Below are positions 20,971 through 40,768 of a DNA stretch of 64,000 nt, in pieces. Below the pieces are notes generated by a model. It saw only the letters and a program-made list of their open reading frames with translations. It searched no databases and was not told the origin of the DNA. Position 1 is the stretch's first letter; each line of letters opens with the position of its first letter. Both the position numbers and the translations under genes were made by a program. Source of the stretch: Alphaproteobacteria bacterium (lineage in GTDB: Bacteria > Pseudomonadota > Alphaproteobacteria > SHVV01); assembly GCA_016869275.1 (NCBI GenBank), contig VGEO01000006.1:8251-72250 (forward strand), read 5' to 3'.

Positions 20971-20980
20971 GGCTGCGCTC

Positions 20981-23103: not shown

Positions 23104-23169
23104 CGAACCCTCCCCTTGAGCCGTGATTGCGCCGGACACTAGCCAAAGCGCTCGGCGTTGGCCAGCATC

Positions 23170-23203
23170 AAAAAAAAGCCCCCGGGCGACGCCGTCCGGG
23201 GGC
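23170..23203 (-). terminator. Rho-independent terminator after SBP-3
   Basis: 8-bp GC stem GCCCCCGG/CCGGGGGC (23178-23185 and 23196-23203), followed on the minus strand by a run of 8 T (23170-23177). It starts 22 nt after the SBP-3 stop. Confidence 0.85.
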
Positions 23204-23224
23204 CAGACCGTTAAACGCCGAGCG

Positions 23225-24379: not shown

Positions 24380-24475
24380 GTTCGACCTCCCAGGACGAAA
24401 GTGGTGTGACCCTCCGCCTCCGCGGGCGGAACGTGGTCGGATTTTACCCGAATGTGGCCATGCCACCAAACACGA

Positions 24476-25303
24476 CTACCGGCTTAGAAATTCCATCACG
24501 TCCCGGTTGAAGCGGTCGGCGTGCTCCGACATCGGCAAATGGCCGCACTTCTCGTAAATCTTGAGCTCGGCGCGCGGCATCTTCTTGTGGCCGGCGACCG
24601 TCAGCTCCCACGACGAGCGGATGTCCTCGCGCCCGGTGATGATGAGGGTATTGGCCTTGATCTGGTCGAGACGGTGATAAACCCGCCACTCTTTCGAATC
24701 GACGCTCTTGATCATGCCCTCGATGGTGGCGAGGTAGGCCGGCAGTCGGTCGGGCATCGCGTACGAGGTCATTTGCGGCAGCAGCATCTCCTCGACCACG
24801 GTCTTGGGGTCGTAACAGATGTTGCCGAGACGCTGGCGACACACTTCCCAAGTCGGGTTCTCCATCGCTTTGGAGCCGTTGGCGCGCGCGCCCTGGAGCG
24901 TCTTTATCTGCTCTTCGGGCGGATGAAAGGTCGAGCCCGAGCCGACCAGAATCAACTTGTCGATCCGGTCGGGGCGCGTGAAGTACATGAGCGAGGCCAG
25001 CAGCGCGCCGTAGGAGCTGCCGACTACCGAGTACTTCTTGGCCCCGACGTGATCCATCAGCGCATTCAGGTGCTCGACCGCGGCCTGCTGCGGCGTACGG
25101 CCTTTGAAGTCGACCGCGGCGGTGAAGCCATGACAGACGATGTCGGGGGCGATCACGGCGAACTTCTCGGCGCAGTAGTCGATGTTGTGGAACCACATGT
25201 CGCCCGACGCGCCGACCCCGTGCACCATCAGAAAGGTCGGACCGCTGCCCTCGTGCAAGTAGCGGGTCTTGATTCCGGCGACGGTATCGAACTTACAACG
25301 CAT
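24476..25303 (-). CDS. Alpha/beta hydrolase (meta-cleavage-product hydrolase-like), paralog 3
   Basis: 275-aa ORF: MRCKFDTVAGIKTRYLHEG, MVHGVGASG, nucleophile elbow VGSSYGA and KCGHLPMSE. Confidence 0.88.
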   Translation of the reverse strand: MRCKFDTVAGIKTRYLHEGSGPTFLMVHGVGASGDMWFHNIDYCAEKFAVIAPDIVCHGFTAAVDFKGRTPQQAAVEHLNALMDHVGAKKYSVVGSSYGALLASLMYFTRPDRIDKLILVGSGSTFHPPEEQIKTLQGARANGSKAMENPTWEVCRQRLGNICYDPKTVVEEMLLPQMTSYAMPDRLPAYLATIEGMIKSVDSKEWRVYHRLDQIKANTLIITGREDIRSSWELTVAGHKKMPRAELKIYEKCGHLPMSEHADRFNRDVMEFLSR

Positions 25304-25408: not shown

Positions 25409-26419
25409 TTAGAGCAGATAGGCGCGCTCGGTAGCGTCGGCCTTTTCGATCACGGCGAAATCGAGCTTACGCGGCGCCACGAACTCGCACAGCATCCCGT
25501 CCGGATCGCGGACGAAGATCGACCGCTTGAGCGGGCCATCGATTTTCTTTTCGATCGCGATCCCGTCCTTGGCGAGCGCCCGCTCGGCGGCGTCGATCTC
25601 CTTCTCGCTCACTACTTCGTAGGTGTAATGGTGCACCGTCGGCTTGGCGGCGCGATCCTGCTTGACGAGCGTGATGTCGACGCCGTGGTTGGCGTGCGGA
25701 CCGGCGAAGCTCACATACGTGCCGTCCTTCGAACGGTAGACGACCTTGAGCCCGGCGGTCTCGCCGTAGAACTGCACCATCTTGTCGAAATTCTTGGTCA
25801 GCAGCACGGCGCTGGTGAAGCGGATGGTGTGGACGCGGGCGTCCTCGACGCGGCGCAGCTCGAACTTGATGTGGTAGCGGCCTTCGCTCAGCCAGTTGCC
25901 GGCATCCGGGTCCCAGTTGCCGGTGATAGCCGGTCCTTCCTGGCTGTTGAAGACAGTACGCCAGTTGTCGAGCATGTCGGCGTAGAACTCGTGCAGGTTG
26001 CCGTCGGGGTCGAACATGTAGATCGAGTGCGAGAGCTGGTGATCGACCTTGCGATGGACCTCGAGCCCGGCGGCGGCGGCGCGCTTGTAGGCCAGCGCGA
26101 GATCGCGTTCGCACTCCATCTCCCACCCGAAGTGGTTGAGCCCGGCTTCGAGCCCGCGCCCGTGCGGGATCTGGACGTGGCCGTCGCGGCCGACCACGGT
26201 CTTGCCCTTCGGGATCTGGATCAGGCCCAAATCGTGGTGGGTGTTGCCGTTCGAGAGGAATCCGGCCGGAATGTGCGGCTCGCGGAACACCGGCTCGAAG
26301 CCGGCGATCTTGTTATAGAAGTGCATCGAACGCTCGAGTTCGCCGACGAACAGGTTGGCGTGCCCGAGGCGGCGCGGCTTGAAGGCGACGGCCGGTTGCG
26401 CTTCGGCTTGGATCGACAT
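25409..26419 (-). CDS. Two-domain VOC-superfamily protein (extradiol dioxygenase/glyoxalase-like), paralog 2
   Basis: 336-aa ORF that is collinear with VOC-1 (RRLGHANLFV, GNGNTHHDLG, HEFYAD, C-terminal ERAYLL versus ERAYLA). Confidence 0.85.
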   Translation of the reverse strand: MSIQAEAQPAVAFKPRRLGHANLFVGELERSMHFYNKIAGFEPVFREPHIPAGFLSNGNTHHDLGLIQIPKGKTVVGRDGHVQIPHGRGLEAGLNHFGWEMECERDLALAYKRAAAAGLEVHRKVDHQLSHSIYMFDPDGNLHEFYADMLDNWRTVFNSQEGPAITGNWDPDAGNWLSEGRYHIKFELRRVEDARVHTIRFTSAVLLTKNFDKMVQFYGETAGLKVVYRSKDGTYVSFAGPHANHGVDITLVKQDRAAKPTVHHYTYEVVSEKEIDAAERALAKDGIAIEKKIDGPLKRSIFVRDPDGMLCEFVAPRKLDFAVIEKADATERAYLL

Positions 26420-26468: not shown

Positions 26469-27608
26469 TTACTCGGCGGCCTGTTTGGACCACGCCAGCT
26501 CGGCCGGGTTGATCTTGTAGAGATCGGCGCAAACGCTGCCGACGATCTGCTCCTGCTCCGCCGCCGTCAGGTCCTTGAGCATGCGTCCGACCGCGGAGTG
26601 CGCGTTGACCCCGACCGAGCGCACGTGCGGGAAGTCCGACCCCCACATGATGCGGTCGGCGCCGACTTCCTTGACGGCATAGGCGCCGCGCTCGTCGTCG
26701 ATCCAGCCGTACCAAGTGCGCTCTTTCAGGTAGTCGCTCGGCTTCTTCAGGTCGAGCTTGGGCAGCGTGATGCGCTTGGCGAACCCGCTCGCGATCATGT
26801 CGACGCGGAACGAGAAGTTCGGCAGCCACGAGATCTCGAACTCGCTCACCACGATCTTGAGCCTGGGATGGCGATCGAAAATCTTGCCGAAGATGAAGTC
26901 GACCGCGAGCGTGCCCTGGACCTCGTTGTAGATGTCGAGCGCGTAGCGCGGCGCCTCGGCGAGTTCCTCTTCGTTATGCGGGTGCAGCGGATCGGGAATG
27001 CGGCCGGTGATCGAGTGCAGCGTCACCGGAATCTCGGCCTCGGCGCAGCGCGCCCAGAACTTGTCGTAGATCTTGTCGCGATAGGGCTTGGTACCCTCGG
27101 GGTTGCGGCAGTTGACGCAGATGCCGGAGTAGCCGGCCTTCAACGAGCGATCGAGCTCCTTGATGCCCCACTCGACGTCGTCGCCCATCGGGATCATGGC
27201 GACGCCGAGCAGGCGCTTGCGGTCGTAGGCGAAGAAATCGCGAAGCCAGTCGTTGTAGACTTCGGCTGCCGCGCGCAGGGCCGCGAAATGCTTGCTCTGC
27301 ATGATGATGAGGCCATAGGACGGGTACAGCACCTCGGCCAGCACGTTGGCCTGACGCTGAAACTCGATCCGCTTCTCCGGCTGATAACCGGCAAGGTGGA
27401 GGCCGGTCGTCCTGTGCTCGGCATCGATGCCGCCGATTGTCAGCACTTGTGCGCCAGTATAAAAGAAGCGCCCCTTCTTTCCCCGGTATTCCGACATTTC
27501 GTGCGGAATCTCGTCGCCGAACTTGTCGCCGAGCGCTTTACGCCAAAGGTCCGTGGTCTCGAAAATGTGGGAATCGGATGAGATCATCCGGGGATAGGTC
27601 GTGGCCAC
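26469..27608 (-). CDS. Amidohydrolase-2 family protein, paralog 3
   Basis: 379-aa ORF with ISSDSHIFET, SEFEISWLPNFSFRVD and WGSDFPHVRSVGVNA. Confidence 0.9.
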   Translation of the reverse strand: MATTYPRMISSDSHIFETTDLWRKALGDKFGDEIPHEMSEYRGKKGRFFYTGAQVLTIGGIDAEHRTTGLHLAGYQPEKRIEFQRQANVLAEVLYPSYGLIIMQSKHFAALRAAAEVYNDWLRDFFAYDRKRLLGVAMIPMGDDVEWGIKELDRSLKAGYSGICVNCRNPEGTKPYRDKIYDKFWARCAEAEIPVTLHSITGRIPDPLHPHNEEELAEAPRYALDIYNEVQGTLAVDFIFGKIFDRHPRLKIVVSEFEISWLPNFSFRVDMIASGFAKRITLPKLDLKKPSDYLKERTWYGWIDDERGAYAVKEVGADRIMWGSDFPHVRSVGVNAHSAVGRMLKDLTAAEQEQIVGSVCADLYKINPAELAWSKQAAE

Positions 27609-28710: not shown

Positions 28711-29328
28711 ATGGCAACCAAGACGACGACGTTTTCACCGCGGGGCCGCGCCTTCGCCCGCACGATCGCGGCGGCCCGGCGGCGGCAGCCGCGCTTGCCC
28801 CGACCGGGGCCGTTCGGGGTCTGGGCCGAGGACGACGGCGAATCGTGCTGGCTTCCGGCCCCGTGCGGCGGCTACATGACGCTCAAACTCTCGCCCGACA
28901 CGTTTCCGACCCAGAACTACATGGCCGCCGTCCAGGTGATCGAGCCGGGCGGCACGCTTCCCGACCACGGCCACGGCGCCCAGGACGAGTTCTTGTTCGT
29001 CTACCGGGGCCGCGGCACCGTTTTCATCGACGGCGCGCCGCACCCGATCGGCCCGGGTTCGCTGGTCTATGTCGGTAAGCACCGGAAACACGGCTTCGTC
29101 AATTCCGGCCGCACGCCGATGAAGATTTTCTTCTTGTGCGTACCGTCGGCCGGCGTCGAGCACTTGATGCGGGCGGTCGGCCAGCGGCGCCAACCCGGCG
29201 CAAAGCCGCCCCGCCGCTTCCCCCACCCCGCCAACACCGCGCGCATTCTCGACCGCTACGCGTATTCGCACCCGCGCCAGATGGTCGCCGGCGGCACCGG
29301 CGAGAAATACCCGGGCCGCGAGCCATGA
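28711..29328 (+). CDS. Cupin-domain protein (possible metal-dependent dioxygenase)
   Basis: 205-aa ORF. Cupin motif 1 is PDHGHGAQDEFLFVYRGRG and motif 2 is GPGSLVYVGKHRKHGFVN. The start could be further downstream. Confidence 0.75.
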   Translation: MATKTTTFSPRGRAFARTIAAARRRQPRLPRPGPFGVWAEDDGESCWLPAPCGGYMTLKLSPDTFPTQNYMAAVQVIEPGGTLPDHGHGAQDEFLFVYRGRGTVFIDGAPHPIGPGSLVYVGKHRKHGFVNSGRTPMKIFFLCVPSAGVEHLMRAVGQRRQPGAKPPRRFPHPANTARILDRYAYSHPRQMVAGGTGEKYPGREP

Positions 29329-30452
29329 CCGGGCGGCGCTGGCTCAACTCAGCCGACTCGCACGTCAACGAGCCGCCCGATCTATGGGAGAAAGCGCTCG
29401 GCCGACGCTTCGGCGACGCGGTGCCGCGCGTGATCGAACCCAAGGGCGGCGCCAGATCGGCCTCGGTCGTCGGCGGCGGGCGCGTCTATTTCACCGGCGA
29501 GGATTACATCCCGGTCGGCGAACTCGTGCTCGGCGATCCGGTGCTCGAAAAAGTGCGCCGCACCAATGTCGATCCCGCGTTCCGCGCGGCTTGCATGGAC
29601 GAGGACGGGGTGTGGGGCGAGCTCCTGTTCCCGACCAAGGCGATGATGATCTTCCCGCTCGCCGACGCCGAACTCTCGCGCGCCTGCCTCGCCGTCTACA
29701 ACGACTGGCTCCACGAGTATTGCCAAGGCGCGCCGACGCGTTTGTTCGGCGCCGCGCTCATCAACACCGAGAACGTCGAGCGCGCGATCGCCGAGATCGA
29801 GCGCAACGCCAAGCGCGGCTTCCGCGCCGCCATGATCAACGGCGACGTGCGGCCCGAATGGGGCGCCTACCGCGACGCCAAGTACGACAAGTTGTGGGCG
29901 CGCGCCGAGGAAATGGCGATTCCGGTCTGCCTCCACATCTCGACCGGGATGAAGAAAGACATCTTTCTCTTCACCGGACCCAAGCTCGGCGACGCTGCCA
30001 AGGGCTACCTCGACTTGATGGCCGAGGCCGGCGAGGTGCTGGCGAACGAGTTCATTTTCGGCGGCATCCTCGATCGGTTCCCGCGGCTCAAGCTGTTCCT
30101 GGTCGAGTACGAAGCGTCGTGGCTGCCGCACTGGCTATTCCGCACCGAGCAGGTCGCCGACGACTTCGGCCCCAACATCGGCGTGGTAAAACCGAAGCGC
30201 CCGATCCGGCGCTACCTCGACCAGATCTACGTCGGCGTGATCGACGATCCGTTCGTCCGCCACGTGTCGGATGCGATGGACCCGGCGCGGCTGGTGTGGG
30301 GCTCGGACTACCCCCATGTCCGCAACACGTTCGGTAAATCGCACGCGACGGTCGCGCGCATCTTCGGCCACCTCCCGCCGGCGACGATCGATGCCATCGC
30401 GGTGGACAATGCGGCGTCGCTCTTCAAGATCGCGATGCCGACGGCCGTGTAG
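29325..30452 (+). CDS. Amidohydrolase-2 family protein, paralog 4 (most divergent)
   Basis: Track ORF 29136-30452. The homologous start MTGRRWLNSADSHVNEP is at ATG 29325 and overlaps the cupin stop as ATGA. Contains VEYEASWLPHWLFRTE and WGSDYPHVRN. Confidence 0.88.
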   Translation: MTGRRWLNSADSHVNEPPDLWEKALGRRFGDAVPRVIEPKGGARSASVVGGGRVYFTGEDYIPVGELVLGDPVLEKVRRTNVDPAFRAACMDEDGVWGELLFPTKAMMIFPLADAELSRACLAVYNDWLHEYCQGAPTRLFGAALINTENVERAIAEIERNAKRGFRAAMINGDVRPEWGAYRDAKYDKLWARAEEMAIPVCLHISTGMKKDIFLFTGPKLGDAAKGYLDLMAEAGEVLANEFIFGGILDRFPRLKLFLVEYEASWLPHWLFRTEQVADDFGPNIGVVKPKRPIRRYLDQIYVGVIDDPFVRHVSDAMDPARLVWGSDYPHVRNTFGKSHATVARIFGHLPPATIDAIAVDNAASLFKIAMPTAV

Positions 30453-31235
30453 CTATTCGAGCGCGAGTTCGACGCGGCCGATCGATCCGAAATCGGCGAC
30501 CACCCGGTCGCCGGCGCGCGCGATCACGATGTCCGAGCATGCCCCGGTCGTGACGTAGTCGCCGGCGGCGAGCCCCATACGTCGGCTCGGCAGGTCGTTG
30601 GCGAGCCAGGTGAGCGCCGTCAACGGATCGCCCATGACGTTGGCGCCGACCCCCTGCCCCACGGCCTCTCCATTGACCGACGTCGCCGCCTCGGCCCGCG
30701 CTAGGTCGAGATTCTGCCACTCGACGCAGGGGGCGCCATAAACCCAGTGGCTGCCGAGCGCGTTGTCGGCGATCGCCTGCGACGCGCCGCAGGTAGTCCA
30801 GTCGGCGAAGCGGGTGTCGACGATTTCGATCGCCGGCACCAGGATGTCGATGGCGTCGATCACCTGGTCGCGCGCGTAGGGCGCTCCGGTCGCGGGCAGA
30901 TCTTTGGCCATCCGAAACGCAAACTCGGTCTCGATGCCGACGCGGAACAGCGAGCTCACGGTAAGCGTCGCCGGACTGGGGAACACCCGGTCCGCGATCA
31001 GCCGCCCGCTCGCCGGCTCGTCGATCTTGAGCTTCTTCTGGATCGCTGGGTTGGTGAACGCGATCTTGTACCCGACCGGCTTACCGAGCAGCGCGACGAA
31101 GCGATCCTGGATCGCATAGGCCTCGAACGGCGAATCGGGCCGGCAGTCCTCCGGCAGTTCGAGCAGCGCTTTCTTTTGCCGGAGCGCCGCGTAAAGCATG
31201 GCGGCAGCTTTTCCGATCGCGATCGTCTTCAACAT
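30453..31235 (-). CDS. 2-keto-4-pentenoate hydratase / 4-oxalocrotonate decarboxylase family (MhpD-like, FAH fold)
   Basis: 260-aa ORF: AYAIQDRFVALLGKPVGYKIAFTNPAIQKKL ... GIETEFAF ... IEIVDTRF ... GDYVTTG. Confidence 0.8.
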   Translation of the reverse strand: MLKTIAIGKAAAMLYAALRQKKALLELPEDCRPDSPFEAYAIQDRFVALLGKPVGYKIAFTNPAIQKKLKIDEPASGRLIADRVFPSPATLTVSSLFRVGIETEFAFRMAKDLPATGAPYARDQVIDAIDILVPAIEIVDTRFADWTTCGASQAIADNALGSHWVYGAPCVEWQNLDLARAEAATSVNGEAVGQGVGANVMGDPLTALTWLANDLPSRRMGLAAGDYVTTGACSDIVIARAGDRVVADFGSIGRVELALE

Positions 31236-32842
31236 TCCAGACTCCCGACTAGGCGCTGCGCAGTTCCCGCGGCGATCGCGCGAACCTTGGCCTTGTCGAC
31301 TTTGCCGACCGGGCTTACCGGCAGGCGGTCGACGAAACTCCAGCCCTTGGGTTGCTTATAGCCCGAGAGCGCCCGGCGGCAATGCGCTTTGACGTTTTGC
31401 GCGGCATCCGCCGGCGCGCCCGGCACGAGCGCAACCACGGCGTGGACGCGCTCGCCCCACTCGGCATCGGCGAGTCCGACGACGCACGCATCGGCGACGC
31501 CGGCGACGCTCCGGATCACGTCCTCGATCTCGTTTGGGACGATATTGACCCCACCCGAAATGATGATCTCCTTCTTGCGACCGACCAGGAAAATGGTGCC
31601 GTCGTCGTCGGTCTTGGCGAGGTCGCCGGAATGGAACCAACCGCCGGCCAACGCGGCGGCCGTCTGCTCGGGTTTGTTCCAATAGCCGAGCATCAACTGA
31701 TCGCCGCGGTAGCAGAGCTCGCCGACCTCGCCCGGCGGCAACGGCGCGCCGCGCTCGTCCAGGATCGCGATGGTGATACCCGGCACCGGCAGCCCGACCG
31801 CGTCGGCCTTGGCCGCCAGGTCGCGCAGCTCCGAGAGCGCGATCACGGTCGAGGTGACTTCGGTTTGGCCGACCACATTGATGACGCGAGCGCGGCGGAA
31901 GAGGCGCTTCATCTCTTCACGCAAGGTCGGGTCGAGTGGCGCGCCGGCCGAGATGATGAAGCGCACGGCATCAAACCGGGCATCGGAGCCGCCGGCCTCG
32001 GCAATGCGGTCGACGATCCGGCGCGACATCGTCGGCACGAACCAGGTGAACGAAACCCGGCCCGACGCTAGTTCGGCGATCGCCGGATCGGTCTCGAACT
32101 CGCGCATGACGTGGACGGTGAGGCCGTAACGCAGAAACGCCATCGACAGCGCCCAGCCGCCGCCATGATAAAGCGGCGTCGATTGCAAATAGGAATCGGT
32201 GCGCCCGAACCCGAGCGGCGCCAGCGCCGCGAGCTGGTTGTCGGCGAGCGCGACGTAATTGGCCTGCGCTTGGACGACGCCCTTGGGCCGTCCCGTCGTC
32301 CCGCCCGTATACATGATGTAAGCCGGCGCCCACTCGTCCAAGTCGAGATCGGGCGCTTCGGCCGGGCCGGTGCCCACCAGGCGAGCGAGATCGTCATCGC
32401 CGCGCTCGTCGCCATAGGTGATGACGCGCCGCCCCGTCGTCAGCCGTCGATCGAGCGTCGGCGCGAGTTCGGTCGCGACCGCGATCAACGCGGGCGTGCA
32501 ATCGTCCAGCACGAAGGCGAGCTCGTCAGCATTGGCGCGGTAATTGAGCGGCACGGTGACGGCGCCGATCCGGCTAGCCGCGTAATAGAGCGTCAGCGTG
32601 TCGAGATAGTTGCGCCCAAGGAGCCCCATGCGCGCGCCTGGCGCGAGGCCGTAGCGGGCGCGCAAACCCTGCGCGACCCAGTTCACGCGGCGCTCGAATT
32701 CGGCGAAGGTCCACGCCCGATCGAGGACGACGTCGCGAACCGCGATCTTGCGCGAAAAGTTGATCGCGTTCCGCGTCAAGTCCTCGCCGACCAGTCGCCG
32801 TCTTGCGATTCGCTTGAAACTCGGGCGGTCGAACAAGTCCAT
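31229..32842 (-). CDS. AMP-dependent acyl-CoA synthetase/ligase
   Basis: 537-aa ORF with AMP-binding motifs YTGGTTGRPKGV, GYWNKPEQT, WFHSGDLA and GRKKEIIISGGVNIVP. Its stop overlaps the hydratase start by 7 nt. Confidence 0.92.
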   Translation of the reverse strand: MDLFDRPSFKRIARRRLVGEDLTRNAINFSRKIAVRDVVLDRAWTFAEFERRVNWVAQGLRARYGLAPGARMGLLGRNYLDTLTLYYAASRIGAVTVPLNYRANADELAFVLDDCTPALIAVATELAPTLDRRLTTGRRVITYGDERGDDDLARLVGTGPAEAPDLDLDEWAPAYIMYTGGTTGRPKGVVQAQANYVALADNQLAALAPLGFGRTDSYLQSTPLYHGGGWALSMAFLRYGLTVHVMREFETDPAIAELASGRVSFTWFVPTMSRRIVDRIAEAGGSDARFDAVRFIISAGAPLDPTLREEMKRLFRRARVINVVGQTEVTSTVIALSELRDLAAKADAVGLPVPGITIAILDERGAPLPPGEVGELCYRGDQLMLGYWNKPEQTAAALAGGWFHSGDLAKTDDDGTIFLVGRKKEIIISGGVNIVPNEIEDVIRSVAGVADACVVGLADAEWGERVHAVVALVPGAPADAAQNVKAHCRRALSGYKQPKGWSFVDRLPVSPVGKVDKAKVRAIAAGTAQRLVGSLEC

Positions 32843-32854
32843 CGCCTCTGCCCG

Positions 32855-33871
32855 TCACGAGCGCCCGCGCCGGTAGAGCGCGTCGCGCGCGCGTTCGGCG
32901 AGGTCGGTGCGCGCGGCGTCGTCGGGGCCCGATGCGGCCGGCGCTCCGTCGAGCACGCTTTCGCGCCGGAGATACGGGTAGGGCTTGGTCCGGACTTGGC
33001 TCGCAAAATGATTGGCGAGCGTCCCGGCGCGCCGGGCGCGGAGCGCCGCCAAGTCGATCTCGGCGTAGGCGAAGCCCTCACCCGGGCTTTCGTTGGCGGC
33101 GAGCACGACCCCCTTGGAATCGATCGCGTACGAGCCGCCGCGCCACCCGAACGGCGGAAACGCGGCGGCGCTGGCGCCCTGGTTCGCGAACACGCCGTAG
33201 ACGCCGTTCTCGAGGCAGCGCACGCGGCAGAGCGCGCGCCACGGATCGTCGGGCCCGGAGTCCTGCAACGGATGCATGAGCGCCGCCGGACTGGCGATCA
33301 CCTCGGCGCCGCGAAGCGCCAGCTCGCGCCAGAGCTCGGGGAAATAGCTGTCGTAGCAGGTCGTGACGCCGAGCCGACCGCACGGGAGGTCGAGGCAGAC
33401 GATCGGGTCTTGCGCGGCCAAGCCGGCGACATCGGCCGGACTCGAAAACGGCTCGATCGGAAGCCAAGGGTTGAGCTTCCGATACTTCGCGATCAGGCCC
33501 GACGGGCCGACGACCGGCGCCGTGTTGAAGAGATGATCGGGGTACGCCGGGTCGCGCTCGATCACGGTGCCGGCGACGATCGTGCAGTCGTGCTCGGCCG
33601 CGATCTTGCCGAGGGCGGCGTCGATTGGTCCCGGCAGCGGGACCGCGACCGCATGCGCGTTGATCTCGGCGACGCTCCGGTACGGCACGCCCTGAAACGC
33701 GAATTCGGGCAGCACTACGAGCTTGATCGGCGCGCCGAACGGCCGGTGCGCGGCGAGCCCGCGTCGCAGCAGGCGCCCGGTGCGCTCGAGATTGGTGGCG
33801 ATGTCGGCCGGCGCGCGGGCGATCGGGTTGGCGGTCTGGACCGCGAGCGCGGCGTAGCGGTCGAGGGTCAT
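32855..33871 (-). CDS. Carbon-nitrogen hydrolase (nitrilase superfamily)
   Basis: 338-aa ORF with candidate Glu-Lys-Cys triad contexts VVLPEFAF, AKYRKLNPW and GVTTCYDSYFPE. Confidence 0.85.
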   Translation of the reverse strand: MTLDRYAALAVQTANPIARAPADIATNLERTGRLLRRGLAAHRPFGAPIKLVVLPEFAFQGVPYRSVAEINAHAVAVPLPGPIDAALGKIAAEHDCTIVAGTVIERDPAYPDHLFNTAPVVGPSGLIAKYRKLNPWLPIEPFSSPADVAGLAAQDPIVCLDLPCGRLGVTTCYDSYFPELWRELALRGAEVIASPAALMHPLQDSGPDDPWRALCRVRCLENGVYGVFANQGASAAAFPPFGWRGGSYAIDSKGVVLAANESPGEGFAYAEIDLAALRARRAGTLANHFASQVRTKPYPYLRRESVLDGAPAASGPDDAARTDLAERARDALYRRGRS

Positions 33872-34857
33872 GCCGGCGTCCGTCCGACCCAGCGTTCGAG
33901 GCCGCCCAAGCCCAAGCGCCAGCGACCGCCCTGCTCGAGCCCGGCGAGCACGCCGGAGGGCGGTTCGGCGAGCATCGCCGCCGCGTCCGCGACCCAGGCG
34001 TAGGGTACGTCGTGCGCGGCAAAGGCGCGCTCGATCTCGGCCGCCGGCCGGCGGCCGACCGCCGCTGCGACCGCCGCGTGCGAGGCGAGCCCGTCGAGCC
34101 CGAGCGCCGCGGCGAGCTGGCGCTGGAACTTGGGCTCGCGCACACCGAGCGACACCAGCTGATGATCAGACGTTTCGTAGAAGCCGTAGCCGGGCGGCGC
34201 CACGAAGGTGCGGAACGCGTCGGTATCGCGGGCGCGGCGCGCGGCCAGCGCGCGCGGCAGGTGCCAAGATTGAACGACCGACATCAAGTCGATCTCGATA
34301 TGGGCCCGCCTGGGACTGCCGGGCGTCAGCAGCGCGGCTTGGATCGCGAACGCGCACGCCATGCCGGCGGCGAAATTCGAAACCTGAACGCCCCAGTAAA
34401 CCGGCCGGCCGTCGCGATCGACGGCGACGGCAGCGGCCCCGGCCGCGGCCATGTAGTTGATGTCGTGCCCGGGCCGGTCGGCGAGCGGGCCGTCGGGGTA
34501 ACCGCGGAGCGAAGCGACCACGAGCGGGTCCCGCACCCGCCACAGCGCCGCCGGCGCGAGCCCGAGCTTGGCGGCCGCTTGCGGCCTGAAACTTTCGACC
34601 AGCGCGTCGGCTTCTTTGAGCACGGCTTCGAACCGCGCGTGTCCCGCGTCGCGCTTGAGGTCGACCTGTTCGATCTCCTTACCGGCGTTGGCGGCCTCGT
34701 AAAGCTCGGGATCGAGCGTCCGCAAGATATCGCCGCCGGGTGGCTCGAGTTTGATCACGCGCCAGCCGGTTTGCACCAGGAGCCGGGTGCAGTAGGCACC
34801 CGGCAAGAGCGTGGTCAGGTCGAGGATCGTCGGCGGCACCATGCGCCCGTCGGCCAC
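33868..34857 (-). CDS. Alpha-methylacyl-CoA racemase-like member of the family III CoA-transferase fold (short; catalytic Asp position is Asn)
   Basis: 329-aa ORF. It has the racemase-type GHDINYMAAAG motif, and VQVSNFAAG stands where racemases have GDFGGG and the transferase at 12678 has SIVDLMTG. Also contains YGFYETSDHQLVSLGVREPKFQRQLAAALGL. Confidence 0.8.
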   Translation of the reverse strand: MADGRMVPPTILDLTTLLPGAYCTRLLVQTGWRVIKLEPPGGDILRTLDPELYEAANAGKEIEQVDLKRDAGHARFEAVLKEADALVESFRPQAAAKLGLAPAALWRVRDPLVVASLRGYPDGPLADRPGHDINYMAAAGAAAVAVDRDGRPVYWGVQVSNFAAGMACAFAIQAALLTPGSPRRAHIEIDLMSVVQSWHLPRALAARRARDTDAFRTFVAPPGYGFYETSDHQLVSLGVREPKFQRQLAAALGLDGLASHAAVAAAVGRRPAAEIERAFAAHDVPYAWVADAAAMLAEPPSGVLAGLEQGGRWRLGLGGLERWVGRTPA

Positions 34858-34860
34858 CGG

Positions 34861-35604
34861 CTAGGGCGCGTAGGCTTCGCGCAGGCCCCGATATGGATCG
34901 GGCAGCGTGAGCGGTTTCAAGTCGCCGATCTCCTTCTCCATCACGTCGGCGAACCGGCGCCGGACCTCGCGATTCGAAAGATTCTTGATGCCGAGATCGA
35001 GGTACTTCTGCTCGTTGGACGAGTCGGGCCGCCCGAACATGTCGGTCGAGAGCGGCATCCATTTGTCGAGCGCGCGCTGTAGCTCCTCGACACGTCCCTG
35101 TTTGAGCAGTCTCGGCACGCGGCGGCGGCCGAGCGCCGAGTGGACTTCGCCTTCGTCGTAGGCGCTCCGGCACGACCAGTCGGCGAGCGGCAAATATGTC
35201 GAGGTCGCGGTGCCGAGCGCCTGGATCGCACCGGCCCGTTCGGCCACCATCCGGTAGATGCAGAGCTCTTCCCAGGTATCGATGGTGACGTGAAAAATAT
35301 CGAGCTTGCGCTGGCCGTGCTCGGGCCCACGCTGCGCTTCCTCGATCAGCGGATCGGGGTCGTATCCGATCGCCCGGAGGATGTCGGCGACGCCTTTGCC
35401 GTGGCGCATCTCGTCGGCGAAGGCGAGCGCTTCTTCGATCCGCTCTTCGGCGCTGGGCGCGCGGGTCAGCCACGGCACCATGATCGGGGTCGCGTATTCC
35501 GACGACATCTGCACCGTCAGCATCTTGACGAGCATCGTCCGGTATTCGTCCGACATCTGGTCGGGCGACACCATCGTTCGCGCGCGGTTGCTGGCTGGCG
35601 TCAT
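34861..35604 (-). CDS. PaaA/PaaC-family ferritin-like di-iron protein (PaaA-like), stand-alone
   Basis: Track ORF 34861-35676. I prefer ATG 35604 (MTPASNR...). It is collinear by eye with E. coli PaaA: SSEY, ADEMRHG (ExxH), MVAERAG, YDEGEVH, and the C-terminal NREVRRRFADVMEKEIGDL...LPDP. Confidence 0.75.
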   Translation of the reverse strand: MTPASNRARTMVSPDQMSDEYRTMLVKMLTVQMSSEYATPIMVPWLTRAPSAEERIEEALAFADEMRHGKGVADILRAIGYDPDPLIEEAQRGPEHGQRKLDIFHVTIDTWEELCIYRMVAERAGAIQALGTATSTYLPLADWSCRSAYDEGEVHSALGRRRVPRLLKQGRVEELQRALDKWMPLSTDMFGRPDSSNEQKYLDLGIKNLSNREVRRRFADVMEKEIGDLKPLTLPDPYRGLREAYAP

Positions 35605-35855
35605 CGCATCCTCGTTTCGCTGATGTCGATGTTTACCCCCGGACAGCGGTTGCCGTCGAGGGTGCGCCCTATTCACCGAACCGGAACTCCGTTCGTGCCG
35701 CGCTGGCGCGCGTCCGGGCTCGATTGACTCGCTGTTTTTTCTCGTGCATCAATCGTCGACGTACATCGGTCGGCACCGACTCCGCATGCCCGCAGCGGGA
35801 GCGTGGCGGTGCGAGTGCCGGCCCGGCGTTTGGGAGATACCTCGAGGAGGAAAAA

Positions 35856-37094
35856 ATGATGAACGCCCGTTCCCTGTGGCGAACCGGTCTGGCCGCGACC
35901 GTGCTCGCATCGTTGACCCTGGTGGCGGCACCGGCATCGGCGCAGCAGGGGGTCAGCGCGACCGAAATCAAGATCGGCGGCTTCGGCGCCATCACCGGCC
36001 CGATCGCTTTCATCGGCGCCGCCAGCCGCGACGGCATGCAGCTCGCGGTCGACCAGATCAACGCCAACGGCGGCATCAACGGCCGCAAGCTGCGCCTGAT
36101 CTACGAGGCCGGCGGAACGCCGGCCGAGTTCCAGGCCGCGGCGCGCAAGCTGGTCGAGCAGGATCAGGTGTTTGCGGTCATGATCGGCTCGGGCTCGACC
36201 GGGGCCGCGGCGGCCGCCGACTACCTGCGCGAGAAAAAGATCCCGACCTACGCGCTCACGGTGGCGGTCCCCAAGTACTACGATCCGTTCGCGCCGAACA
36301 TGCTTTCGGGCACGGTGCCGCACGCGAAGTTCCTGGCCGAGTCGATGTTCCGGCTCACCAACTCGTGGGGCACGCCCAAGAACGTCGCCCTCGTGGTGAC
36401 GCGCCTCGCTTATCACAAGTCGGTCGCCGATAGCTTGAAGCCCAAAATCGAAGCGGCGAAGATTCCGCTCTCGGTGGTCGAGGAAATCGACTCCGGCGCG
36501 CGCGATATGACCGCGCCGCTGGTGGCGATCGCCAAGGCCAAACCCGACGTCGTCGTGCTCGCGGCCGACGCGGCCGAGGCCGGTTTCATCATCAAGCAGG
36601 CGCCTGAAAAAGGCGTCCGCGGCGTCAAGTGGGTGATCGCCGGCTCGGCTGCGACCGACGCGTTCGCGCCGATCGTCGGCAAGCTCGGCGAAGGCGTCCG
36701 CTCGGAGTGGTTCTTCCCCTACTACTTCGGCGAGGACAAGATCGAGATGCAGAAGTTCGAAAAGGCGTGGAAGGCGGCCTACGTCAACCCGCCGCCGCAA
36801 CGCCCGAACCTCTACGACTTGTCGGGCTACAACAGCATGATGATGATGGGTGTGGCCTTGAAACGCGCCGGGCAGAACCCGACCTGGGACAACGTGATCG
36901 CCGCGTTCCAGTCGTTCCGCAACGTCCGCGCGTCGGAACTCGGATCGTGGGCGGCGGATATCTCGACGCCGGAAACGTTCGGGCCCAAGGACATCCAGGG
37001 CAACGACCGCATGTATCAGGTCGAGCTCAAGAACGGTAAGTGGGTGGTGCGGCCCGGCGCCGAATACGTGTTCGACGTCGGCGGCAGCAGCTGA
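35856..37094 (+). CDS. LivK-type substrate-binding protein (SBP-4, divergent from SBP-1 to SBP-3)
   Basis: Track ORF 35724-37094. ATG 35856 follows GAGGAGG. It has the signal peptide MMNARSLWRTGLAATVLASLTLVAAPASAQQ followed by IKIGGFGAITGPIAFIG. Confidence 0.9.
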   Translation: MMNARSLWRTGLAATVLASLTLVAAPASAQQGVSATEIKIGGFGAITGPIAFIGAASRDGMQLAVDQINANGGINGRKLRLIYEAGGTPAEFQAAARKLVEQDQVFAVMIGSGSTGAAAAADYLREKKIPTYALTVAVPKYYDPFAPNMLSGTVPHAKFLAESMFRLTNSWGTPKNVALVVTRLAYHKSVADSLKPKIEAAKIPLSVVEEIDSGARDMTAPLVAIAKAKPDVVVLAADAAEAGFIIKQAPEKGVRGVKWVIAGSAATDAFAPIVGKLGEGVRSEWFFPYYFGEDKIEMQKFEKAWKAAYVNPPPQRPNLYDLSGYNSMMMMGVALKRAGQNPTWDNVIAAFQSFRNVRASELGSWAADISTPETFGPKDIQGNDRMYQVELKNGKWVVRPGAEYVFDVGGSS

Positions 37095-37116
37095 CCCGTT
37101 CCGGCCGTGTGACGAG

Positions 37117-37145
37117 GGCCCTCTACCCCGCCCGGGGAGAGGGCC
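37117..37145 (+). other. GC-rich stem-loop between the SBP-4 and permease genes
   Basis: GGCCCTCT-A-CCCC-GCCC-GGGG-AGAGGGCC. The outer 8-bp arms are 37117-37124 and 37138-37145, with an inner CCCC/GGGG pair. It lies 23 nt after the SBP-4 stop and has no T-tract. Confidence 0.5.
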
Positions 37146-37195
37146 TTCGCATGCGGTAAGGAGCGCGGTCTCGTCTCCTCGTCGCGGCGGACTCG

Positions 37196-38074
37196 ATGCT
37201 GATCGATTTCCTGTTCGTCCTGGTCGGCGGCCTCAAGTTCGGCGCGATCTACGCCTTGGGCGCGATCGGCCTCGTCGTCATCCACAAGGCGACCAAGACG
37301 GTCAACTTCGCCCACGGCGCGCTCATCATGCTGGGGGCGTACGCCACGTTTTTTCTGCTCGAACGGTTCAAGCTCCCCTATTGGGCCGTCTACGTCCTGG
37401 CGCCGACCCTGGTCGGCGCCGTATCGGCGTTCCTCGAGTTCGCGATCCTGCGCCCGATTCGGCGCGCCGACATGTTCATCGTCATCATCGCCACCGTGTT
37501 CCTGGCGATCGCGCTCCAGGAAGCGGTCCGCCTCCCCTACGACGTCGAAATGCTGTCGGTGGCGGCGGTGCTCGAGGGCGATCCGCTGTTCCTGGGCGAT
37601 CTCATCGTCACCCAGGAGTCGATGTGGATCATCGCCGGGGCCTTCTTGTTCGCGATTCTGGGCGCGCTCCTGTTCGCGCAGGCGGGCTTGGGGCGCAGCA
37701 TGCGGGCGATGGCGCAGAACATCCGCGGCGCCCAGCTCTGCGGCTATTCGGTCGACGGCGTCTATGTGTTCGCGTGGTTCGTGGGCGGCGGCCTTGCCGG
37801 TCTGGCCGGAGTCTTCAGCGCCCCCTCGCTCGGCGTCTCGCCCGAACTGATGGTCGCGACAATCGTGCCCGCGTTCGTCGCCGCGGTGATCGGCGGCTTC
37901 GATTCGCTCCGCGGCGCGATATTGGGCGGCCTGATCCTTGGCATCGTCGAGAACATCGCCGCCACCTACATCTCGGCCGGCCTCAAGAGCGCGATCTCGT
38001 TCCTCATTCTGTTCGCGGTGCTGATGATCCGGCCCGAGGGCCTGTTCCCCGAGGGGCGCGTCCGCAAGGTATGA
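37196..38074 (+). CDS. livH: Branched-chain-type ABC permease (LivH family), second system
   Basis: 292-aa ORF: MLIDFLFVLVGGLKFGAIYALGAIGLVVIHKATKTVNFAHG ... MIRPEGLFPEG. The symbol is family-level only. Confidence 0.9.
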   Translation: MLIDFLFVLVGGLKFGAIYALGAIGLVVIHKATKTVNFAHGALIMLGAYATFFLLERFKLPYWAVYVLAPTLVGAVSAFLEFAILRPIRRADMFIVIIATVFLAIALQEAVRLPYDVEMLSVAAVLEGDPLFLGDLIVTQESMWIIAGAFLFAILGALLFAQAGLGRSMRAMAQNIRGAQLCGYSVDGVYVFAWFVGGGLAGLAGVFSAPSLGVSPELMVATIVPAFVAAVIGGFDSLRGAILGGLILGIVENIAATYISAGLKSAISFLILFAVLMIRPEGLFPEGRVRKV

Positions 38075-38081
38075 ACCGGCC

Positions 38082-39890
38082 ATGAAACGCGATGGCGCCG
38101 GATTTCGGGAACTCGCGGCGCCGGTCCTCGTGGTGTGGGCCGGCGCCGCGGCCAGCCTGTTCTTCGATCGCTACACCCAATACGTCACCGCTCTGCTGCT
38201 GGTCGCGATCATGGTCGGCATTGCGTTGGTGATCCTGGTCGGGCTGGCGCGCATGATTACGCTCGCCTCCGGCGCGATGATGGGCCTTGGCGCTTACGGC
38301 ACCGCTGCGATGATGGTGCATTGGGATGCGCCGTTCCTGGTCGGCGTCGCGTTCGCGACCGCGCTCGGCGCGCTGGGCGGGCTCCTGCTCGGCCTGCCCG
38401 CCACCCGCTTCCGCGGTCACCACCTGGCGATGGTGACGATGGTGTTCCAGTTCGTGGTGATCATCGTCATCAGCGAATGGGATTCGCTCACGGGCGGGGT
38501 CGAGGGCATGCGCGTTCCGCAGGCGACGATCGCCGGCTACGCGCTCAAGGCCGATTGGGAGTATGTGGTCCTGATCGCGTTCTTCGCCGGCCTCTCGATC
38601 CTGTTCGCCGGCATCCTGATCCGCGGCCACTTCGGCAAAGCGCTCAAGGCGATGAGCGCCACCGAGGTCGGCGCCGAGGCGTTCGGCATCTACGTCGCCG
38701 GCTACCAGGTGATGGCGTTCGTGATCTCCTCGGCGATCATCGCTTTGGGCGGTGCGTTGTTCGCGCCCGAAATCCGCATCCTCGATCCTGACCAGTACGG
38801 CATTCTGAGCTCGGTCCTGATGCTCGCCTATCCGATCGTCGGCGGCATGACGTCGCTGTGGGGCGGCATCATTGGCGGCGGCCTGCTGCGCGCGGGGCCC
38901 GAGCTCCTGCGCGTGGTCGACGAATACCAGGAGCTGGTCTACGCGGCGATCGTGATCGCCGTGATCGTGTTCTTGCCGGGCGGACTGGTCGAGATCTACG
39001 GCCGGGTCGCCGCGGCGCTCGGCGGCAAGCGCGCCAAGGCGTCGCCGCCGGAACGTCCCCAAGCCGCGGCCCGAGCGGCCGCGCTCGGCCACCTCGCCGG
39101 CGCGCACCCGGTGAGCCACCCGAAAGGACTGGTCGCCCTCAAGACCGCGTCCGTCTCCAAGAGCTACGGGAGCCTCAAGGCGGTGAGCGCGGTCGATCTC
39201 ACCGTCGCCGCCGGTTCGATGCACGGTCTGATCGGTCCGAATGGCGCCGGCAAGACGACGTTCTTCAACACGATCTCCGGTTTCATCCCGCCCGACGAGG
39301 GAACGATCGAGATATTCGGCCGCCGCATGGCCGAGGAACCGGCGCGCGCCCGCATCCGTTTCGGCGTCGCGCGCACCTTCCAGAACGTCGCCGTTTATCG
39401 GACGCTCTCGTGCCTCGACAACGTCATCATCGGTGTGGGCGAGAACGACGTCGTCGCCTCGCTTTGGCACAGCATCGACGAAGCGGTCGGCGGGCGCGCC
39501 AGCCGCGCCCGGCGCGAACGGGCGTTGAACGCCCTCGCGGCGGTCGGCTTGGCCGACGTCGCCGGCGAAGCGGCCGGGTCGCTCTCGCTCGGCAACCAGC
39601 GGCGGGTCGAAATCGCGCGCGCGATCGTATCGAAGCCCAAGCTGATCTTGTTGGACGAGCCGGTCTCGGGCGTCGGGGCCGAGGAAGAAGAACGCCTGAA
39701 AGAACTATTGCGCTCGCTCAACCGCGAGCTCGGCGTCACCATGTTCGTGATCGAACACAACATCCGATTCGTCGTCGACCTGTGCGAGCGCCTGTCGGTC
39801 ATGTCGAACGGCCGCATCATCGCCGAAGGCGCCTCGGCCGAGGTCATCAAGAGCGACGACGTCCGGCGCGTCTATTTCGGCGAGGGCTAG
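38082..39890 (+). CDS. Fused LivM-type permease / LivG-type ATPase
   Basis: 602-aa single ORF. The N-terminal roughly 310 aa are multi-TM LivM-like (LASGAMMGLGAYG ... FLPGGLVEIYG). An Ala/Pro-rich linker of about 45 aa follows. Then comes an ABC ATPase with Walker A GPNGAGKTT, signature LSLGNQRRVE, Walker B ILLDEPV and H-loop VIEHNI. Confidence 0.88.
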   Translation: MKRDGAGFRELAAPVLVVWAGAAASLFFDRYTQYVTALLLVAIMVGIALVILVGLARMITLASGAMMGLGAYGTAAMMVHWDAPFLVGVAFATALGALGGLLLGLPATRFRGHHLAMVTMVFQFVVIIVISEWDSLTGGVEGMRVPQATIAGYALKADWEYVVLIAFFAGLSILFAGILIRGHFGKALKAMSATEVGAEAFGIYVAGYQVMAFVISSAIIALGGALFAPEIRILDPDQYGILSSVLMLAYPIVGGMTSLWGGIIGGGLLRAGPELLRVVDEYQELVYAAIVIAVIVFLPGGLVEIYGRVAAALGGKRAKASPPERPQAAARAAALGHLAGAHPVSHPKGLVALKTASVSKSYGSLKAVSAVDLTVAAGSMHGLIGPNGAGKTTFFNTISGFIPPDEGTIEIFGRRMAEEPARARIRFGVARTFQNVAVYRTLSCLDNVIIGVGENDVVASLWHSIDEAVGGRASRARRERALNALAAVGLADVAGEAAGSLSLGNQRRVEIARAIVSKPKLILLDEPVSGVGAEEEERLKELLRSLNRELGVTMFVIEHNIRFVVDLCERLSVMSNGRIIAEGASAEVIKSDDVRRVYFGEG

Positions 39891-40592
39891 ATGACAGCGC
39901 TCGCGGTCAACGGCTTGAAAGTCGCCTACGGTCCAGTGGTCGCGGTCCATGACCTGTCGTTCCGACTGGAGCCGGGCGAGTCGGTGTCGCTCCTGGGTCC
40001 GAACGGCGCCGGCAAGACCTCGGCCGTCGAGGCGATCGCGGGGCTCCTGCCGAAAGCCGCCGGCAACGTCATGCTGGGCGCGAGCGATATCTCGCGCCTG
40101 CCGGCGAGCGCGGTCGTCAAGAAAGGGCTCGCACTGGTGCCGCAATGGCGCGAACTGTTCCCGACCTTCAGCGTCGAGGAGACGTTGTTGGCCGGCGCCA
40201 ACGGCGCCGGCGGACGGACGCCGCGGCCGCTCGCCGAAATCTACGATTTGTTCCCGATCCTGAAGGAGCGGCGCTCCCAGGCGGCCGGATCGCTCTCGGG
40301 CGGCGAACAGCAGATGCTCGCGATCGGACGCGCGCTGGTGACGGCGCCGAGCGTGCTGTTGCTCGACGAACCTTCGGCCGGCCTGGCGGTCGGCGTCGTC
40401 AAAGTACTCGTCGAAATCTTGGGCAAGATCCGTGCGACCGGCGTTTCGATCCTGCTGGTCGAGCAGAAGCTCGACATCGCCCAAGCGGTGACCGAGCGCA
40501 GTCTGGTGCTGTCGGTCGGTCAGGTATCGTGGACCGGTCCGATCACCGAAGCCAGCCACTTGGACGAAATCCGCCGCGCGTATTTCACCTGA
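39891..40592 (+). CDS. livF: ABC transporter ATP-binding protein (LivF type), second system
   Basis: 233-aa ORF whose ATG directly follows the upstream TAG. Walker A GPNGAGKTS, signature LSGGEQQML and Walker B LLLDEPS. Confidence 0.92.
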   Translation: MTALAVNGLKVAYGPVVAVHDLSFRLEPGESVSLLGPNGAGKTSAVEAIAGLLPKAAGNVMLGASDISRLPASAVVKKGLALVPQWRELFPTFSVEETLLAGANGAGGRTPRPLAEIYDLFPILKERRSQAAGSLSGGEQQMLAIGRALVTAPSVLLLDEPSAGLAVGVVKVLVEILGKIRATGVSILLVEQKLDIAQAVTERSLVLSVGQVSWTGPITEASHLDEIRRAYFT

Positions 40593-40768
40593 CCGAGGAA
40601 AACGGCCGGCCGCCCGATTCGGGGCAGCGGGGGGACACCGAACGAACGGCCGGCCGTGCCGCCAATACGCGGCGGCGAGAGCGAACCTTTCGCCTGTTAC
40701 GTTCGAACGCGAGCGTCGGATGCAATCCGTCCCCCCTGCAGGCAGGAGCGGAACGAGCCCGAGAGGGT

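Follow-up and report, generated by a model that had tools for sequence, protein, structure and literature searches.

A lineage-restricted five-gene operon encoding a partner-less PaaA-type di-iron protein, possibly for the oxidation of an imported acid as its CoA thioester

The 64,000-nucleotide stretch of contig VGEO01000006.1 analyzed here (assembly GCA_016869275.1, positions 8,251 to 72,250 of the forward strand; hereafter, the window) contains five minus-strand genes, located between positions 30453 and 35604, and a divergently transcribed importer. We read this arrangement, with middling confidence, as a lineage-restricted catabolic operon of a Hyphomicrobiales bacterium that serves the import of an acid, the formation of its coenzyme A (CoA) thioester and the oxidation of that thioester by a PaaA-type di-iron enzyme without a partner subunit. 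The elements of this system are the following.

34861-35604, minus strand: PaaA-like di-iron carboxylate protein of 247 amino acids (aa) with an ATG start; family PF05138, subfamily with the motif D-E-G-x-x-H.
33868-34857, minus strand: CoA_transf_3/MCR-fold protein, 329 aa from a GTG start, with Asn161 in place of the catalytic Asp.
32855-33871, minus strand: nitrilase-superfamily C-N hydrolase, 338 aa, with an intact Glu-Lys-Cys triad.
31229-32842, minus strand: ANL-family acyl-CoA ligase, 537 aa, with AMP-binding and AMP-binding_C domains.
30453-31235, minus strand: MhpD/DmpE-like FAH-fold hydratase or decarboxylase, 260 aa, with the FAA_hydrolase domain.
35605-35855, no strand: divergent intergenic region, the presumed location of the promoters (direct reading of the sequence).
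35856-37094, plus strand: Peripla_BP_6 (HAAT/Liv-type) substrate-binding protein (Pfam, 183.3 bits).
37196-40592, plus strand: LivH-like permease, fused LivM-like permease/LivG-like ATPase (602 aa) and LivF-like ATPase (Pfam and NCBIfam).

The central component, the PaaA-like protein, belongs to the PaaA_PaaC family (PF05138; 56.8 bits against a threshold of 28.5) and falls below the cut-offs of the NCBIfam models for PaaA itself (TIGR02156; 59.7 bits, cut-off 280) and BoxB (21.5 bits, cut-off 499). Its AlphaFold2 (AF2) model, built on 83 homologues, is highly confident (predicted local distance difference test score, pLDDT, 95.3) and has the ferritin-like four-helix-bundle fold of PaaA (Foldseek TMq 0.80-0.83 to PaaA chains); the top structural matches are SSO1313 (4mud) and PaaA (3pwq, 4ii4), with TM scores of about 0.8, and the model is nearer to PaaA (E ~1e-8) than to PaaC or BoxB (E ~2e-4). 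The iron ligands of PaaA are Glu42, Glu72, His75, Asp126, Glu155 and His158 (PMC4498308), and these residues align, respectively, with E36, E65, H68, E122, E151 and H155 of the window protein; the six ligand columns, together with D150, are invariant across the alignment of 8 catalytic-type subfamily members. Because all six candidate di-iron ligand positions are kept, the protein is predicted to be of the catalytic type and not a PaaC-type scaffold. The latter possibility had been left open in a preliminary description of this locus, and the structural model settles on a PaaA fold with, by alignment, the full candidate ligand set.

The same description had read the motifs SSE, DEMRH, AER and DEGEVH, all of which our alignments reproduce, and had considered the last of these to be an ExxH motif shifted by one residue. 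The shift is real, but what had looked like the oddity of a single gene is a conserved subfamily signature: D-E-[GA]-x-x-H is the constant second motif in 8 of the 8 catalytic-type close relatives, whereas about 75 other members of the approximately 80 short PaaA-like proteins that we aligned have the canonical [DE]-E-x-x-H, and MAFFT places a one-column gap opposite the Gly in all canonical-motif short homologues. The one-residue insertion thus marks a small clade and is not a sign of decay. When 1.84 billion representative proteins were searched exhaustively with phmmer, the PaaA-like protein had 248 matches at E<=1e-3 and 8 at E<=1e-30, which makes its subfamily of PF05138 a very rare one; a word-indexed homologue search retrieved only a relative with 94% identity, so that the exhaustive search of representatives was needed.

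That the PaaA-like gene stands alone, with no PaaB, PaaC, PaaD or PaaE gene in the 64 kb, had been proposed from reading the sequence and is borne out by Pfam scans and tblastn, with a few short open reading frames (ORFs) judged by eye only. A tblastn search of the window with eight PaaC-like or PaaA-like queries returned the gene itself and nothing else, and the leftover coding-like ORFs in the gaps contained nothing resembling a Paa partner, three of these ORFs (17-355, 51257-51547 and 54333-54638) being judged by eye and not scanned with profiles.

Among the close homologues of the PaaA-like protein, several join in tandem a catalytic-type half (A) and a degenerate half (C) that lacks the His and Glu ligands, in the order A-C in P0002 and C-A in P0004 and P0005; P0006 is a free degenerate C-type protein. 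The occurrence of fusions in both orders implies at least two independent fusion events. These observations come from the metagenome proteins P0002, P0004 and P0005 and the loci L008 and L010. A C-like partner, either adjacent or fused, accompanies P0002, P0004 and P0005 and the A genes of L011, L012, L015, L016/L017 and L023; none was found beside P0003 (L007, 2 kb) or in L014 (1.9 kb), both of which are short contigs. The latter two are the nearest relatives outside the lineage (45% identity for P0003, 37% for L014). In the scanning of loci, alignments A1 and A4 proved too diverse, and narrower alignments yielded 1 genome locus and 4 metagenome loci. The relatives' loci are organized as follows, ECH denoting proteins of the enoyl-CoA hydratase family.

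L008/L009: AMP-ligase, ECH, A-C fusion, aldehyde dehydrogenase.
L011: C-like fragment, A, ECH, AMP-ligase, ECH.
L012: A, then C.
L015: thioesterase, A, C, MaoC, two more PF05138 genes, AMP-ligase, thiolase.
L016/L017: ECH, A, C, ECH, with SDR, UbiD and LigAB; L016 additionally encodes a second A/C pair, an AMP-ligase and an aldehyde dehydrogenase.
L023: C, A, then a ligase-like gene.

An AMP-ligase occurs in all of the relatives' loci for which 5 kb or more of context is available (L008/L009, L011, L015, L016 and L023). The loci follow the logic of the Box pathway, namely a ligase, a di-iron oxygenase, an ECH-family ring-opening enzyme and an aldehyde dehydrogenase. In L014, the stand-alone relative is followed by a Peripla_BP_6 protein that is 43% identical to the divergent binding protein of the window, compared with about 22-25% for the window's three other binding proteins. 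Beyond the lineage, the PaaA-like gene recurs with just two of its neighbors, an acyl-CoA ligase and this particular binding protein; none of the remaining three genes of the operon accompanies it. The earlier suggestion of an imported substrate thus gains from the recurrent importer link, and that of a CoA-thioester route from the ubiquity of the AMP-ligase in the longer loci; the amide-, nitrile- or carbamoyl-bearing substrate proposed at the same time fares less well, the intact-triad C-N hydrolase being the single feature that points to it.

Two of these loci contain further features of note. L015 (5658-14978) has four genes of the PF05138 family in a span of about 9 kb, namely an A/C pair of the D-E-G-x-x-H type and two members with the canonical ExxH, accompanied by MaoC, thioesterase, GST, AMP-ligase and thiolase genes. 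In L016, the longest ORF at 12881-14836 (651 aa, minus strand) has no Pfam match; the window ligase, used as a tblastn query, aligns instead to the opposite strand (13001-14608), and the real gene is therefore an AMP-ligase encoded on the plus strand.

The five genes are all co-directional, as established from the ORF table and direct reading of the sequence, which agree with the compact operon and the junctions given in the preliminary description. The PaaA-like and CoA_transf_3 genes are separated by a 3-nucleotide (nt) gap (34858-34860; 18 nt with the alternative ATG), the CoA_transf_3 and C-N hydrolase genes overlap by ATGA at 33868-33871, the C-N hydrolase and ligase genes are separated by a 12-nt gap with GAGG inside (32843-32854), and the ligase and MhpD-like genes overlap by 7 nt (ATGTTGA, 31229-31235). 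The last overlap is not conserved, since in the L001 lineage the two genes are 20 nt apart and the ligase measures 528 aa. Shine-Dalgarno-like sequences were seen by direct reading at 3 of the gene starts. For the PaaA-like ORF, an alternative GTG start at 35676 is possible; the start called in relatives, however, is the ATG at 35604, which is preceded at a distance of five bases by GAGGA. For the CoA_transf_3 gene, the callers in relatives take the ATG at 34842, which gives a protein of 324 aa. The third-codon-position GC content (GC3) of 0.82-0.89 across the operon and importer genes supports these as real genes; they reside on a chromosome segment with 62-71% GC that also carries gyrB, glnB and glnA in the window. 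All five products exceed the Pfam gathering scores, in agreement with the five families originally proposed, and none of the five (0/5) reaches an equivalog-level NCBIfam assignment. At 30452/30453, the stop codons of the MhpD-like gene and the convergent Amidohydro_2 gene abut with zero spacer, which leaves no room for a terminator between them; in the L001 lineage, the spacer is 15 nt.

Asp169 of Frc is the nucleophile of family III CoA-transferases. The product of the second operon gene passes the threshold of the corresponding Pfam family, CoA_transf_3 (PF02515, 177.8 bits), and, when aligned to MCR and YfdE, has Asn161 at the position of the catalytic Asp (Asp156 of MCR and the conserved Asp of YfdE), while it keeps His131 of the GHDINY motif (His126 of MCR) and the Glu241 equivalent, both of which are invariant in alignment A6. 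The Asp is retained in 10 of the 10 nearest homologues of the CoA_transf_3 protein; Asn161 is common to the window, the L001 group (81% identical) and a contig of the metagenome-assembled genome (MAG) L013, in which PaaA-like and CoA_transf_3-like genes are both present. The C-terminal end of the protein is short, and in its AF2 model confidence holds up to about residue 298 and falls to a pLDDT of <50 over residues 299-329. With the nucleophilic Asp replaced by Asn, covalent-anhydride CoA transfer is predicted to be impossible, and racemase chemistry would lack one base, so the protein is neither a canonical CoA-transferase nor a canonical racemase; the original label "racemase-like", taken to mean a working racemase or transferase, has to be given up. 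The roles of the MCR catalytic residues, including Asp156, have been described, and the D156A mutant of MCR keeps some activity in one assay (PMC10967716), for which reason "altered" is a safer description of the window protein than "dead".

The remaining three enzymes are assigned at the level of families. The C-N hydrolase (CN_hydrolase, PF00795, 115.1 bits) keeps, in comparison with PH0642 (1j31), Glu56, the Lys of KYRKLNPW and the Cys of TTCYD. Its best NCBIfam matches are archaeal nitrilase, formamidase and aliphatic amidase, all below cut-off, and no named branch (nitrilase, aliphatic amidase, formamidase, carbamoylase or omega-amidase) was reached, the best score being 96.4 against 500; the nearest homologue outside the lineage has 41% identity. 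The ligase (AMP-binding, PF00501, 259.4 bits; AMP-binding_C, PF13193, 58.9 bits) has PRK06187 as its best NCBIfam subfamily (380.6 against a cut-off of 476), a FadD3-family ligase model among its NCBIfam matches, and FadD5, feruloyl-CoA synthetase and 4-chlorobenzoate-CoA ligase among its PDB neighbors; on these matches, it is best described as a generic ANL enzyme that falls into no particular substrate class. The FAH-fold protein (FAA_hydrolase, 41.6 bits) has sub-cut-off NCBIfam matches to MhpD (145.8), DmpE (135.5), HpaH (128.9) and DmpH (108.9), the cut-off of the MhpD equivalog (PRK11342) being 350, and matches MhpD in the PDB (2wqt) at 4.7e-34. It is closest to MhpD, DmpE and HpaH, with the decarboxylases somewhat less close, and the hydratase and decarboxylase models differ little in score.

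The divergent Liv-type importer with its fused permease-ATPase (35856-40592) was recognized from the start and is confirmed by Pfam; its gene order is identical in L001-L005. The binding protein of the operon is about 24% identical to the three other binding proteins of the window, and a PDB search with it gave weak matches to amino-acid binders (~1e-12) and no clue to the ligand. These three other Peripla_BP_6 proteins are paralogues with 45-54% mutual identity, encoded at 16978-24469 (minus strand), where two are located upstream and one downstream of the four membrane/ATPase genes of a single Liv-type transporter. In the intergenic region 35605-35855, no sigma-70 consensus match was found, promoter and terminator scans were at chance level, there was no Rfam match, and the inverted-repeat scan gave only a weak GC palindrome (35700-35719).

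The five-gene set is restricted to one narrow lineage. Its carriers are a single GTDB species representative, the MAG labelled Rhizobium sp. Q54 (Hyphomicrobiales), and a few metagenome contigs from JGI and Logan; it was not found in anything more distant than close relatives. The cluster and importer are syntenic in L001-L006, with identical gene order in the metagenome contigs. All five operon genes and the importer are under purifying selection: in comparison with the L001 lineage, dN/dS is 0.06-0.19 at dS 0.36-0.67, with 0.06 for the PaaA-like gene and 0.19 for the CoA_transf_3 gene. In L001 (3997-4925), the anti-sigma factor and the ABC ATPase are separated by two genes, one of the Ferritin_2/DUF4439 family and one encoding 126 aa; both are missing from the window at 40592-40769.

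In the reading that we favor, a carboxylic acid, probably aromatic or otherwise cyclic, would be imported by the divergent HAAT-type ABC importer, a step supported by the recurrent pairing of the di-iron gene with a binding protein, and the ANL ligase would turn it into a CoA thioester, a step supported by the recurrence of the ligase across the subfamily. The PaaA-like protein may then oxidize the thioester with O2, through epoxidation or hydroxylation of the acyl moiety as in PaaA and BoxB, and would presumably act as a homo-oligomer, without a PaaC-like partner. No reductase is encoded in cis, so that either a housekeeping donor or the substrate itself would have to supply the electrons. 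The C-N hydrolase could remove a nitrogen of the amide type, before the acid is activated or once the ring has been opened, the MhpD-like hydratase would act on a 2-oxo-enoate product, and the CoA_transf_3-fold protein probably binds or isomerizes a CoA ester rather than transferring CoA. These predicted downstream steps differ from those of the relatives, in which ECH and aldehyde dehydrogenase process the product.

A number of observations weigh against this interpretation. No equivalents of PaaB, PaaC, PaaD or PaaE, ferredoxins or reductases were found among the Pfam-scanned genes of the 64-kb window, which leaves an O2-activating cycle without a visible electron source, and the annotated parts of the relatives' loci, in which some ORFs were not scanned, contain no reductase or ferredoxin either. 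The second motif of the PaaA-like protein, DEGEVH, has E-x-x-x-H spacing. Lys68 of PaaA bridges Glu49, Glu72 and Asp126, and this lysine bridge has been proposed to function in electron transfer from PaaE (PMC4498308); in the alignment to 4ii4, which is the E49Q/K68Q mutant of PaaA, Lys68 and Glu49 fall on Ala61 and Met41 of the window protein. The ligases of the different loci are mutually 24-33% identical, a level at which orthology across loci is unsupported. Enzymes of the MhpD family use free 2-oxo acids and not CoA esters as substrates, which leaves the scheme short of at least one step that cleaves the thioester. Finally, the five-gene set is seen only at 81-95% amino-acid identity, so that its conservation says little; the genes do stay neighbors in these close relatives, as the preliminary description would have it, but distant homologues are found elsewhere, those of the C-N hydrolase (in a Planctomycetota MAG and Sphingomonas) and that of the CoA_transf_3 protein all being among unrelated neighbors that give no pathway clue.

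One alternative explanation involves the genes on the other side of the operon.

24476-25303: BphD/HsaD-like C-C hydrolase of the alpha/beta type (NCBIfam BphD 93.3 and HsaD 92.8 bits, far below the cut-offs).
25409-26419: candidate VOC-type dioxygenase (extradiol dioxygenase models 55-61 bits, cut-offs >320).
28711-30452, plus strand: convergent pair of a cupin (205 aa) and a PtmU3/DitZ-like Amidohydro_2 protein (375 aa), assigned by Pfam and possibly linked to the operon.

The operon might form the lower half of a more extensive island (~24.4-35.6 kb) that serves the catabolism of a bicyclic or substituted aromatic compound. In such an island, the VOC dioxygenase and the BphD/HsaD-like hydrolase would cleave a ring to a 2-hydroxydienoate and an acid, the MhpD-like enzyme would hydrate the dienoate, the ligase would activate the acid and the PaaA-like protein would oxidize it, in parallel to the route from biphenyl through benzoate to the Box pathway, or to steroid degradation through HsaD to HsaE and FadD3. 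Such a scheme would explain the presence of a free-acid hydratase and a CoA ligase in one operon and fits with the FadD3-family model among the ligase matches; furthermore, the VOC protein, the hydrolase and two PtmU3/DitZ-like proteins lie within 6 kb and are syntenic in L001 and L002. We nevertheless consider it unlikely: the VOC protein has no sequence match in the PDB and its extradiol scores are weak, the scores of the hydrolase are far below cut-offs, an aldolase and an acetaldehyde dehydrogenase are not present in the window, the modules belong to different transcription units parted by an EamA gene and the convergent pair, and the C-N hydrolase would still be unexplained. Rather improbable, in our estimate, is an evolutionary patchwork in which the five genes do not form one route, the partner-less PaaA-like protein being a relic, a non-oxygenase metal protein or a regulator-like binder, and the CoA_transf_3 protein a decaying enzyme. 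Although the partner is missing where most relatives have one, no reductase is present, the catalytic Asp of the CoA_transf_3 protein is lost and the distribution is confined to a narrow lineage, both genes are subject to the purifying selection described above, the PaaA-like protein keeps all six ligand positions, Asn161 is fixed across three lineages with as many as ~19% differing residues, the translational-coupling junctions are intact, and stand-alone forms occur also in P0003 and L014.

A biosynthetic role, in which the PaaA-like enzyme would hydroxylate a thioester-bound aromatic acid, has a precedent in AntHIJKL, PaaABCDE homologues that act in this manner in antimycin biosynthesis (PMC3869250), and the operon includes a ligase. 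Such a role seems very improbable given that carrier protein, nonribosomal peptide synthetase, polyketide synthase and exporter genes are absent in or beside the operon, that the divergent importer and the catabolic-type neighbors point the other way, and that AntHIJKL is multicomponent whereas the window system is not. Returning to the catabolic operon that we prefer, a bolder form of it can be envisaged, as a speculation with little chance of being right in full, in which a self-sufficient, partner-less PaaA-type oxygenase operates in a nitrogen version of the Box and Paa pathways. A nitrogen-bearing aromatic or N-heteroaromatic acid would be imported, CoA-activated and oxidized at the ring; since opening of the ring would give an amide or enamine and not an aldehyde, the C-N hydrolase and the 2-oxo-enoate hydratase would replace the ECH and aldehyde dehydrogenase. 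The Asn-substituted CoA_transf_3 protein, whose gene occupies the position held by the PaaC-like partner in relatives, might have been recruited as a non-transferase CoA-ester subunit.

With respect to the other genes of the window, the cupin and Amidohydro_2 pair is syntenic in L001 and L002, and the Amidohydro_2 protein (29325-30452) matches PtmU3 (6omp) at 3.4e-48 and DitZ at 2.1e-14. It is 34% identical to a paralogue encoded at 26469-27608 on the minus strand. PtmU3 is a diiron monooxygenase with CoA thioesters as substrates, and both it and DitZ belong to the amidohydrolase-related dinuclear oxygenase (ARO) superfamily. In the window sequence, the N-terminal D-x-H is present, and the C-terminal motif is D-x-P-H-x-R, not D-x-P-H-x-D/E. 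We considered and rejected an assignment of the pair as 3-hydroxyanthranilate dioxygenase and ACMSD, given that the cupin matches generic Cupin_2 only, and that the best match of the Amidohydro_2 protein is PtmU3 (3e-48), with ACMSD at ~5e-8. A second CoA-centred cluster (9316-13865, plus strand) encodes a MaoC/mesaconyl-CoA hydratase-like protein, MmgE/PrpD, an acyl-CoA dehydrogenase and a full-length CoA_transf_3 protein (373.9 bits), and is flanked by two further Amidohydro_2 genes (5881-8555). At 42992-46024 (minus strand) lies a gene for a CoxL/xanthine-dehydrogenase-type molybdopterin subunit; since the first ~215 residues of its longest ORF (1010 aa) are without a domain match, translation probably starts further downstream, and no genes for small or medium subunits were noticed beside it. 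PADLOC gave no matches to defense systems in the window.

CoA-dependent epoxide pathways are the main aerobic "hybrid" strategy for breaking aromatic rings. To our knowledge, only Paa and Box are understood among the catabolic pathways of this kind, and both need a dedicated reductase. A third, rare di-iron clade, with its own metal-site signature, no reductase visible in the examined loci and members without a structural partner, would widen the design space of these systems. The operon also offers a natural test case for the fate of the family III CoA-transferase fold after the loss of its catalytic Asp, along with a defined set of binding protein, ligase and hydrolase whose substrate is possibly an N-containing aromatic acid of environmental relevance. 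We found no description of the D-E-G-x-x-H subfamily or of the five-gene set in the literature, and the initial statement that the combination matches no nameable pathway holds to the extent that the literature is searchable.

Among the characterized systems, the PaaABC(D)E phenylacetyl-CoA 1,2-epoxidase of E. coli and Klebsiella (3pw1, 4iit) shares with the window protein the PF05138 family, the ferritin-like fold (TM ~0.8) and aligned ligand positions (Glu, Glu-x-x-His, carboxylate, Glu...His), and an acyl-CoA ligase is co-encoded. The window protein differs in its length (247 aa, compared to ~310 aa), in its identity of 22-24%, and in having Glu at the Asp126 position, the E-x-x-x-H second motif and no Lys68/Glu49 bridge; the operon is without PaaB, PaaC, PaaD, PaaE, PaaG or PaaZ-type partners. 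In the benzoyl-CoA epoxide pathway (BoxAB/BoxC/BoxD) of Azoarcus evansii (3pm5), BoxB too needs no structural subunit, and the ligase, ECH, di-iron protein and aldehyde dehydrogenase of the relatives mirror Bcl, BoxC, BoxB and BoxD, respectively; BoxB, however, is a protein of ~470 aa with extra domains, and the window operon has no BoxA reductase, ECH or aldehyde dehydrogenase. The best match in both sequence and structure (E 8e-11, TMt 0.89) is SSO1313 of Sulfolobus solfataricus (4mud), an uncharacterized short PaaA-like protein of similar length that was crystallized without a partner chain; it is ~20% identical to the window protein and has the canonical E-x-x-H second motif. In antimycin biosynthesis, AntHIJKL converts anthraniloyl-S-AntG to 3-aminosalicylate (PMC3869250). 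This is a PaaABCDE-type oxygenase that works on the thioester of an N-bearing aromatic acid (anthranilate) with a dedicated ligase, but it is multicomponent, its substrate is carrier-bound and its context is biosynthetic, the comparison with the window operon being one of descriptions and not of sequences. With MCR and the family III CoA-transferases (Frc, YfdE), the CoA_transf_3 protein shares the Pfam family, the fold, the GHDINY motif and the Glu241 equivalent, and it differs from them by Asn161 in place of the catalytic Asp and by the short, low-confidence C-terminal segment. Set against these systems, the operon is a variant of the CoA-thioester di-iron oxygenase pathways, noteworthy for the clade of its oxygenase, the loss of partner and reductase, and the Asn substitution.

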